Assembly (NCBI GenBank): GCA_963693365.1
Contig: CAVNZM010000017.1
Span: 2,285,527 to 2,349,526 of the forward strand
Length of the DNA: 64,000 nt
Direction: 5' to 3'
Origin: Amoebidium appalachense
Lineage: Eukaryota > Protista > Ichthyosporea
This document shows, piece by piece, positions 54-3,000 of the stretch. The translations under genes were made by a program, and so were the position numbers. Each line of letters starts with the position of its first letter. Positions within the stretch are counted from its first letter, which is position 1. The notes under the pieces were generated by a model that made no database searches, was not told the origin of the DNA, and worked only from the letters and a program-made list of their open reading frames with translations.

Positions 54-3000
54 CTATGTGCCTGGAAAATGCCATTCTCAATTGGTTCTCTCACTGTGAA
101 GTGCAGACGGGGATCATCCGGAGGAAAGACAAAACGCTGGTTGTATGTGCTCGTGAGCGAGTGGATGTCCACGTTTTCAGGTGTTATGTCGTGCGCACTC
201 TGTATCTTGCCTCTGTAAGTGTGTAGGTGAGTGAGTGGGTCAGTGAGTGAGTGAGAGGCAGAGAAAGGGAGAGGCAAAGGGCGGCGGCGGCGGGGGGGGG
301 GGGGGGGGGGGGGAGAGAGAGAGAGAGAGAGAGAGAGAGAGAGAGAGAGAGAGAGAGAGAGAGAGAGAGAGAGAGAGAGAGAGAGAGAGAGAGAGAGAGA
401 GGGAGGGAGAGAGAGAGAGAGAGAGAGCGAGAGAGGGAGAGAGGGAGGGTGCGAGACACACAGAGAGTGTGTGTTAAGTGTGTGTGTGTTAAGTGTGTGT
501 GTGTGTGAGGGGGGGGGGGGGGGGGGGGGGGAGAGGGGGGGGGGGGTTTGAATGCGTCAAAAAGTACGAAGTACACAAGAACAAACGGATAACACGATGC
601 AGAATGCAAGCCATACATAAAGAGTATGCATAATAAGCAGAGCCCATCCTCAGGGGGGGCCCACGTCATCCACAGTACCCGAGTTTCGACCTATTCCCCT
701 CGTTAACGAAACCCAACTCAGATACTGTTTCACTTGAACATGAGTAGGTCACCCGTCTTGATCAGAGACGAGCAGGGTTGCTTATGCAGGCAAGGGCAGT
801 GGGAAAGGCCGGGGGTTAAAGTTGCAGCAGTAAGCAGAAGCAAGAAAAATATAGATAGGAACTCAGGAGACGGGGCTTCTAGGAAGCTCCCCCGTCGATA
901 CCTAAGTCGATACTTCCCTGGCTAACATACTACACCAGCTGAAAAGAATTAAGTCCCGAAGGCCACATAATTCGTAATCAGAGGGGAAAATATGAGATTT
1001 GACCCACGCCGCAGGGTAGTAACACGCTTACTAGGGCGGAACTTTATCGTCTTCGAACGGAAAGCTATGCCCCCGGATGTCAGCCGGAAATATGGGGGGG
1101 GATACATATGTGTGTGTCTATGTGCCTGCGTGGGCCCATGTGTGCGCATCCGTATGCATGTGTGAGTGAGCACGGAAGCTTGGTGATGTGCACACGTGTT
1201 TGTGTGCTTTGAAATGCTTTAAGGAGAGAGAGGTTTGGGGGGAGGGGGGAGGGGAGGGGGTAGGGGGGGGAAGCCGAACAGGGATAGAGAGGGTGACGGT
1301 TAGTGGGTGAGGGTGGGTGGGGTTGGGGATAGGTAAGCGTGGTCAGTGTGGTGTTGTGTTCTTTTTCCTTTTTTTTTTTTTTTTGTGGCGGGGGGGGGGG
1401 GGGGGGGGGGGGGGGGGGGGGTACGGGACCCGGAGGGGAGTCATACAGAGTGAATATGCGTAGTCATGTAGGTGATGGCGGATGTGTGTATGTGTGAATG
1501 TGTTGGAGGGGAGAGGGGGGAGGGGGGAGGGGGGAGGGGGGGGAGAGTTCCATCTTCCCCTCCCCCCGTCTTCTCCCCCCCCCCCCCTTCAAAGAGAAAA
1601 AAGAACGTAAAAGGTGCTTGCACATCGCTTGTGTGTGTGTGTGTGTGTGTGTGTGTGTGCGTGTGGGTGCGTACATGTGTGTGTGTGTTTGCGCTCGTGT
1701 GTGCACGTGTGAATGTGTGTGCATTCGTTCGTTCGTGCGTGCGTGCGTGCATGCGTGTGTGTTCGCGCGTGTGTGTGTATGTGTGCGTGTGAGTGTGTGT
1801 GCATTCGTTTGTGCGTGCGTGCATGCACGCTTTGTGTGACTGTTTATGTGTATGTGTGTGTGGGGGGGGGGGGGGGGGGGGGGGGGGGGGGGGGTGAATG
1901 CGGAACACGGTACGAAGTACGCATACACGAAGGACACATGCAAAGGCAAACATTCAAGTATGCAACATCAGCCATGCGCACAGTATGCGTCATAAGCAGA
2001 GCCCATCCTCAGGGAGGGCCCAAGTCATCAATTGCGTCTGAGTTTCGACCCCTTAGCCCGCGTATATACGACTCTCCAACTCAGACAGCAGCATCAACTG
2101 AACTTGGGAGGGTCAACCCGTCTTGATCAAAGACGAGCAGGTTGCTTTTGCAAGCAAGGTGAGCAAAACGGTGAATATGTGTGTGCAAACTAATGGAGTG
2201 CAGCGGAAAATGCGTATGTGCTTACAGATGCACGACACAGAGCAACCATGCCCAGTTGCATGAGGGGGGGGGGGGGGGGGGGGAGGGGGAGGGTAGGGGG
2301 GGGGGGGGGGGGGGGGAGAGGGGACAAAGACCTTGCTTTGAGCTGATCAGCAAGTATCGACAGCAGTGTGCTTGCGTTCTCAGGGAACATCTTATTCGAG
2401 GACATGTTCCATGCGGTAGATCCCGTGCCCGTGCACACCAACACTCCACTGGCCTTCTGTCTCTCTCCGTCTCTCTCCCCCAAGTCCTCTTTCTCTACCT
2501 GCCGGCCCATACAGTGTCAATATCTTGTTGTTGGATGTAACCGGATATAGCTACAATATTAATTCGATATGACTGGAAATAGTAACGATAGCTATTGGAT
2601 ATAGCAAGAGATAGTAACGTTAGTTATTAGATATCACCGGAAATAGTACCAATAATAATTGGATATAACCGGAAATAGTACCAATAGTAATTAGATATAA
2701 CCGGAAACAACAGCAACAAGTATTGGATATAACGGAAATAGTAAGAGTAGTTATTGCATTTTACGGAAATAGCAGCAATATAGTACACCTCATTAGACCT
2801 AATCCGTGCTATTCATCAGCTAAAGCCTGGGTGTACGTACATACACGGTATCAAAAAGGGGGGGAGAGCGGGGAACAGGGAGGAAGAGAAACACAGGGGG
2901 GGGGGGGGGGGGGGGGGGGGGGGGAGGTGGGGAGGGAAAGAGAGGGTGTTGAAAAAGCAAGTGTTGTGTGTGTGTGTGTGTGTGTGTGTGTGTGTGTGTG

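Follow-up and report, generated by a model that had tools for sequence, protein, structure and literature searches.

What kind of RNA is encoded close to the 3′ end of a repeat that is dispersed over the stretch of DNA analysed here (the window, 64,000 nucleotides)? The window is repeat-rich eukaryotic DNA with about 51% G+C. The original prediction, that a mobile repeat carries a conserved, pseudoknotted RNA close to its 3′ end on the minus strand, was right; as to the nature of this RNA, an RT-recognition element or an undescribed ribozyme-like RNA had been proposed. Judging from the letters and their pairing, it is fairly probable that the RNA is a hammerhead core with the block order S-G-C, opened between A9 and G10.1 and completed in stem II by a fourth strand from upstream, with a predicted cut between positions 715 and 714, and that its carrier is a Penelope-like element of the Naiad/Chlamys type.

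Repeat copies and their setting

The copies belong to a dispersed repeat with a common 3′ end and nested 5′ truncations. The following ones were considered:

550..1095, minus strand: copy A (family A), 5′-truncated, with a poly-C tract after its 3′ end, in sense orientation between NADK2-like exons
1896..2159, minus strand: copy B (family B), with a complete core (G10.1 at 2114, U16.1 at 2079, predicted cut 2078/2077, C11.1 at 2047, C3 at 2012)
4699..4920, minus strand: a decayed copy, interrupted by a C tract and with a damaged block G
7065..7740, minus strand: copy A2, the longest in family A, whose core at 7148-7310 is identical to that of A
32312..32504, minus strand: a family 2 copy that keeps block G (C11.1 at 32478) and block C (C3 at 32442, CUGAUGA), block S being truncated away
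35729..37042, minus strand: short clustered 3′ fragments in the same orientation, some with block C only and one with a damaged core
37577..37745, minus strand: a family A copy whose truncation point lies immediately upstream of the cut site, with C in place of G at position 16.2

Because of the identity between A and A2, the window has only two independent complete cores. Besides the copy at 37.6 kb with C at 16.2, two more copies have damaged core boxes. The 3′ ends are marked by C tracts: of the 14 ends listed by a 3′-end pattern, 12 have at least six C within 4 nt on the element's own strand, the background being 1.4% of positions. Exons of a gene similar to that for mitochondrial NAD kinase 2 (NADK2) lie on the minus strand at 53-6368, and the copies starting at 550, 1896, and 4699 sit between them in sense orientation. 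A protein search with one of these NADK2-like exons yielded no match. Fragments of like orientation are clustered at 35.7-37.7 kb, with no clear pLTR unit there.

Copy A2 is without a long ORF, and single contigs extend 84-150 nt past 7740. The six reading frames of the window gave no RT or GIY-YIG motif, so the assignment to Penelope-like elements draws on the RNA layout and the target site; the copies may be non-autonomous or truncated. With these two features in hand, the repeat is likely a Penelope-like element of the Naiad/Chlamys type.

A few side observations concern the same DNA. Upstream of the core, at window positions 860-905 on the minus strand, family A contains a short direct repeat as well as another hairpin, which is stable (about -18 kcal/mol). 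Two paralogous C2H2 zinc-finger arrays with long open frames are found on the minus strand at 12386-13612 and 16646-17953; their DNA is about 64% alike, and the latter is split by a stop at about 16931. Run X15 on 7040-7740 is dominated by C>T and G>A changes and has T-rich loose ends; it looks like a base-converted methylation library, and its variants were not counted as natural.

Helices and covariation in copies A and B

Four helices had been named for the minus strand, and all of them are present in both copies:

Copy A, minus strand: hairpin 772-766/758-752; crossing helix 751-745/693-687; outer stem 744-738/666-660; long stem 728-715/685-672
Copy B, minus strand: hairpin 2137-2130/2124-2117; crossing helix 2115-2109/2052-2046; outer stem 2108-2102/2025-2019; long stem 2087-2079/2043-2035

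The claim that pairing persists in spite of sequence change holds well. When these four helices were taken together with two more (stem I and a closing helix, see below), 37 pairs could be compared between A and B, of which 28 are unchanged, four differ on one side, five differ on both sides, and none is broken. If nine changes with this sidedness were placed at random, all of them would leave the pairing intact with a chance of roughly 2e-4 to 1e-3, a value that applies to helices picked after the data had been seen. Pairs were counted in a register anchored on the core; a MAFFT alignment of seven fragments misplaces the third pair of stem I, and the rows for stem III of the 37.6 kb copy and for the linker of the 4.9 kb copy were left out. 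At least one both-side change falls in each of the stems I, II, III, as well as in the helix joining stems I and II (the interaction helix). The hairpin is indeed shared by A and B, as had been noted, but its seven compared pairs are identical, as are the five of the closing helix, so neither contributes covariation. G-U pairs, of which A has five and B three among the 37, mark the minus strand, in agreement with the original prediction. The core is 79% identical between A and B, the 3′ tail 59%, and the upstream part 49%.

The folding energy of the whole core does not stand out from that of shuffled sequences (z of -0.70 and -1.41, not significant). In nested folding of copy A, where other pairings are favoured, the interaction helix reaches a probability of 2-9% and the hairpin 25-38%; the corresponding values in copy B are 69-84% (six of seven pairs) and 83-99%. 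Stem III pairs with a probability of 87-100% within copy A.

A probable hammerhead core opened between A9 and G10.1

According to the available sections of PMC10085705, the hammerhead core consensus comprises the boxes CUGANGA and CGAAAC. The two conserved motifs of the repeat are these core boxes, and the sole position that varies between families, as G or U, is N7, the free position of CUGANGA; hence the assignment to the hammerhead. A ribozyme was thus rightly suspected, although its class is not an undescribed one. The motifs are conserved into family 2 as had been predicted, but the CCC/GGG register proposed around UGAGGAU is better replaced by stem I plus the core; likewise, the long stem stands as stem III, with its last U-A pair better read as part of the core and the cut site. 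The parts of copy A, all on the minus strand, are as follows:

779..785, minus strand: distal 5′ strand of the closing helix P0, pairing with 639-633
775..777, minus strand: proximal 5′ strand of P0 (CCC), pairing with GGG at 645-643; 2 bp in copy B
752..772, minus strand: hairpin P1, the hairpin named above, which together with P0 would fill the A9/G10.1 opening
745..750, minus strand: 5′ strand of stem II, coming from upstream (the crossing helix), with G750 as G10.1
738..744, minus strand: 5′ strand of the stem I-II interaction helix (the outer stem), pairing with 666-660
712..728, minus strand: block S, with stem III at 728-716 (U16.1 at 716), H17 as U715, the predicted cut at 715/714, and stem I at 714-712
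699..710, minus strand: small hairpin in the S-to-G linker, whose stem sequence varies between families
672..693, minus strand: block G, with stem II at 693-688 (C11.1 at 688), G12-A14 at 687-685, and stem III at 684-672
646..666, minus strand: block C region, with the 3′ strand of the interaction helix at 666-660, stem I at 656-654, CUGAGGA at 653-647, and U646
633..645, minus strand: 3′ strands of P0 (645-643 and 639-633)

All the core nucleotides (C3, U4, G5, A6, N7, G8, and A9; G12, A13, and A14; A15.1-U16.1; H17) are present in A, A2, and B, flanked by stems I, II, and III of 3-4, 6, and 9-13 bp, respectively; the G10.1-C11.1 pair is present as well, stem II requiring the upstream strand. 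In copy A, stem III has 13 bp, and A684 pairs with U716, which is followed by U715 to give a GUU site. Stem I, which had escaped notice, covaries and comprises 3 bp in A and 4 in B: GGG (A) or GGA(G) (B) after the cut pairs with CCC (A) or (C)UCC (B) just before CUGA. No variant rows fall on core nucleotides (0 of 25 in family A, 0 of 4 in family 2), numbers that are consistent with conservation and too small for significance.

The point at which the chain is opened is deduced from stem II. Block C supplies only two stem II pairs (G-C and G-U) in A, A2, and B, whereas six come from the upstream strand, which places G750 opposite C688 and in which two pairs differ on both sides in B; this is why an opening of the chain between A9 and G10.1 is proposed. 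In the parts of PMC10085705 that could be consulted, block C is assumed to be uninterruptible, and A9 joins the stem II strand directly or via 1-2 nt in all alignments known there. Such a join is absent here, the 6-bp partner being located about 100 nt upstream. Where the strands of stems I and II extend further, they are held together by the outer stem, in the manner of the SGC interaction helix.

The block order S-G-C is non-cyclic, which rules out the canonical hammerhead types I-III. HDV-like, twister, IRES, telomerase, and group I RNAs were rejected for their unfitting helix order or conserved motifs; the sole computed test of them is the Rfam search. Rfam covariance models gave no match at the gathering score in the window and no hammerhead among 100 matches up to E 10 in 500-2300, where the weak matches are to miRNA models, mostly on G/C tracts.

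Controls and further families

A descriptor of the four-strand hammerhead, written after the copies had been seen, matches only the three complete cores (A, A2, and B) in the window. It matches none of 100 window shuffles and 0 and 1 of 20,000 core shuffles; when the two originally noted motifs are held fixed, 17 and 14 of 20,000 shuffles match. A scan with the two-motif pattern gave no loci in viral contigs and 26 in metagenome contigs, most of the latter within bacterial-type coding sequence by eye, and the descriptor matches none of these 26. As a side observation, the minus strand of locus L020 (about 1308-1790 on that strand) bears a retrozyme-like array in which units resembling ordinary type I hammerheads are repeated in tandem (five matches); they have the same CUGAGGA-U-GG and CGAAA boxes, the G-then-C order occurring only between neighbouring units.

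Family 2, whose copy in the window is without block S, was examined in contigs after the S-G-C reading had been made. Run X1 fitted 540 contigs, most of the pieces listed covering the core from G to C. The consensus of its upstream loose ends (41 contigs, agreement 0.71) has another stem III strand, which can pair with the majority strand after GAAA, and then UU, GGG of stem I, and a linker hairpin whose sequence is a new one. In this X1 consensus, a third, diverged family thus shows stem III, the GUU site, and stem I as predicted. In the loose-end consensus from run X4 (40 contigs, agreement 0.62), position 16.2 is U and not G, which is a mismatch. These consensuses mix subfamilies, and the 30 letters shown stop short of the upstream stem II strand; run X12 returned no contigs for family 2. 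Single contigs from run X19 (32408-32484) represent further families with other stem I letters, one of them with a GUA site, and suggest that many more diverged families exist in this genome. X9 and X19, both only presumed to be RNA runs, were not drawn on for expression, nor contig depth for copy number.

The same layout in Naiad tails

In the available portion of Craig et al. 2021 (PMC8557442), no canonical hammerhead is reported for Naiad or most Chlamys elements, and eight families are flagged as having half cores 35-50 nt apart; the labels HHR_core and HHR_half_core are given to some families. Seven Naiad consensus tails from the parts of its files that were seen show the core-opened layout by eye, namely a hairpin, the upstream stem II strand, the interaction helix, blocks S, G, and C, and the closing helix. 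The file has 54 Naiad families, and the seven were counted among those that term searches surfaced. Three of these tails are from Acropora and two from Octopus; the other two, whose headers were outside the portion seen, are by file order from a ctenophore and a box jellyfish. Their stem sequences are unrelated to those of the copies described here, and their sites are GUA; one Acropora consensus has one mismatch each in stems I and II. In five of the seven entries, neither of the two letters that follow A9 is a G able to pair with C11.1, which leaves the upstream strand as the only source of stem II, and this is the strongest support for the proposed four-strand reading. Non-systematic term searches of the PMC8557442 files surfaced no Chlamys consensus with this layout.

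Two other kinds of tail were seen in the partly available files of PMC8557442. Near parts 13-16 of File S5, eight Naiad consensus tails from the nematode section look by eye like complete type-CSG hammerheads, several of them with an interaction helix. In File S6, the entry before Chlamys-1_dArm is a green-algal Chlamys tail with a hairpin for stem II, then GAAA, a stem III that is short, and GUC as its site; the CUGANGA box is not visible nearby in the passage shown.

Does the core cut itself?

The predicted self-cleavage would occur after GUU (715/714) within a hammerhead-like three-dimensional core, and it is probably slow or helped by the element's protein; its use may be to trim tandem or read-through transcripts during retrotransposition. 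Slow or protein-assisted cutting, for which the Poseidon hammerhead of the anole is a parallel (PMC11167929), would fit the survival of intact sense copies within a host gene. Among the points that weigh against this explanation, stem I is only 3 bp long in family A; the intact copies A and B are in sense between NADK2-like exons, which would be costly if cutting were fast; and, as the main structural worry, the interaction helix can reach stems I and II only if the long arm of stem III folds back. PMC10085705 notes a comparable geometry that is left unexplained, and the type-SGC ribozymes described there, which share this interaction helix, cleave in vitro.

Among the alternatives, the one that survives best, though it appears unlikely, is that the fold is derived from a hammerhead but no longer cuts, serving only at the 3′ end as a recognition or priming element for a protein (RT). 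Precedent for it comes from the Poseidon element of the anole, in whose hammerhead catalysis needs protein and is dispensable for insertion in vitro: the minimal template RNA covers the greater part of the hammerhead region, and insertion persists in catalytic mutants (PMC11167929). The short stem I and the intact sense copies inside the host gene agree with this alternative too, whereas the retention of every catalytic nucleotide in three families, while N7 and the stems vary, speaks against it. The position before hammerhead cleavage is governed by the NUH rule. In line with the rule, this position is U in the copies described here and A in the Naiad entries seen, never G. Besides, binding and cutting are not exclusive, and a role in RT recognition is possible beside cleavage.

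It is improbable that the motif is an ordinary type-SGC hammerhead in which stem II is the 2-bp GG/UC helix from block C and the upstream strand acts as an off-switch masking C11.1 and G12. The G-C and G-U pairs from block C are available in A, A2, and B, and U751 of the upstream strand can also pair with G12; nevertheless, two pairs from block C stand against six covarying ones from upstream, the GG of block C also pairs with the upstream CC in the closing helix, and five of the seven Naiad entries of this layout, in the files as available, do not have such a G after A9. Still less probable is an assembly of two copies in tandem transcripts, in which block C from one copy would pair with blocks S and G from another: a design for action as dimers is found in many Penelope-like hammerheads, a trans arrangement would ease the fold-back geometry, and fragments are clustered in the same orientation at 35.7-37.7 kb, but stem III is long and stable within one copy, unlike in dimer-type motifs, and the closing and interaction helices bind block C to its own copy.

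The preferred reading thus remains the four-strand hammerhead opened at A9/G10.1. This site is a further opening point of the reversed-order circle that gives SGC, CSG, and GCS. The chances are slightly better than even that it is an active ribozyme and, as such, a seventh natural wiring beyond the six of the three-block model, the "missing" ribozyme of many Naiad-type elements, present here in a C-tract-targeting lineage with many diverged families. If so, two assumptions would be overturned, i.e., that the CUGANGA block and its stem II strand are inseparable and that the spread of Naiad elements involves no hammerhead, and the role of hammerheads in Penelope-like retrotransposition would become an open question again. 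The core-opened layout would account for the failure of descriptor and Rfam searches to detect such motifs, and A9/G10.1 would be a natural point for grafting helices onto a hammerhead. If the four-strand reading is true and the host is not an animal, the fold would be pushed back towards the root of the Naiad/Chlamys clade. A short transcript with a predicted cut site makes the motif testable.

Comparison with known hammerheads and elements

No description of a core-opened hammerhead was found in the literature searched, a coverage that takes in few subscription papers. The type I hammerheads of Penelope-like elements and non-LTR retrozymes, as far as they are described in the available parts of PMC4209133 and bioRxiv 10.64898/2026.07.22.740005, share with the copies the core boxes, an extra nucleotide after A9, G10.1-C11.1, and a position near the 3′ end; in contrast to the motif described here, they have the order C-G-S, are without pseudoknots, and often have a minimal stem III. 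GUU sites and an extra nucleotide after A9 are both known in Penelope-like hammerheads. Retrozymes form head-to-tail arrays in the same two sources, whereas the copies in the window are dispersed and 5′-truncated. A non-LTR retrozyme was ruled out, the copies being dispersed and their block order S-G-C.

The closest ribozyme is the type-SGC hammerhead (HRIMA-1 and variants; Eckert et al. 2023, PMC10085705), which has in common with the copies the order S-G-C, the core nucleotides, CUGANGA-U-G, and a helix by which stems I and II are linked at their far ends. The differences are that here the stem II strand is separate from CUGANGA, two extra helices lie at the A9/G10.1 opening, the S-to-G linker is 18-21 nt long and contains a hairpin (0-8 nt in type SGC), and stem I is 3-4 bp (4-7 bp in the published descriptor). 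Furthermore, the motif described here lies in eukaryotic genomic DNA, while the sections of PMC10085705 that were available report no SGC RNAs in the genomes of known organisms and only two CSG hammerheads, from metagenomes. The descriptor given in those sections asks for a stem I of 4-7 bp, a linker of 0-8 nt, at least two further stem II pairs from block C, and CUGAUGA(U)G. Compared with it by hand, the copies have a linker of 18-21 nt, one further pair, a stem I of 3 bp in A, and G at N7 in A and B, so it would miss them.

As for the elements, the Naiad/Chlamys ORF, according to the available text of PMC8557442, comprises an N-terminal GIY-YIG endonuclease, a CxC motif, and a telomerase-like RT; copies share their 3′ end and are 5′-truncated, with pseudo-LTR partial tandems, inverted 5′ copies, and a tail of 30-40 bp, and the Chlamys targets are (C)n and (CA)n. 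The motif described here is Naiad-like but its target is Chlamys-like, and no ORF is linked to it. The 3′-terminal position of the motif is as in Naiad/Chlamys elements, the target resembles the (C)n/(CA)n of Chlamys as far as that source describes it, and to this comparison the locus contributes at least three diverged families and a C-tract target.
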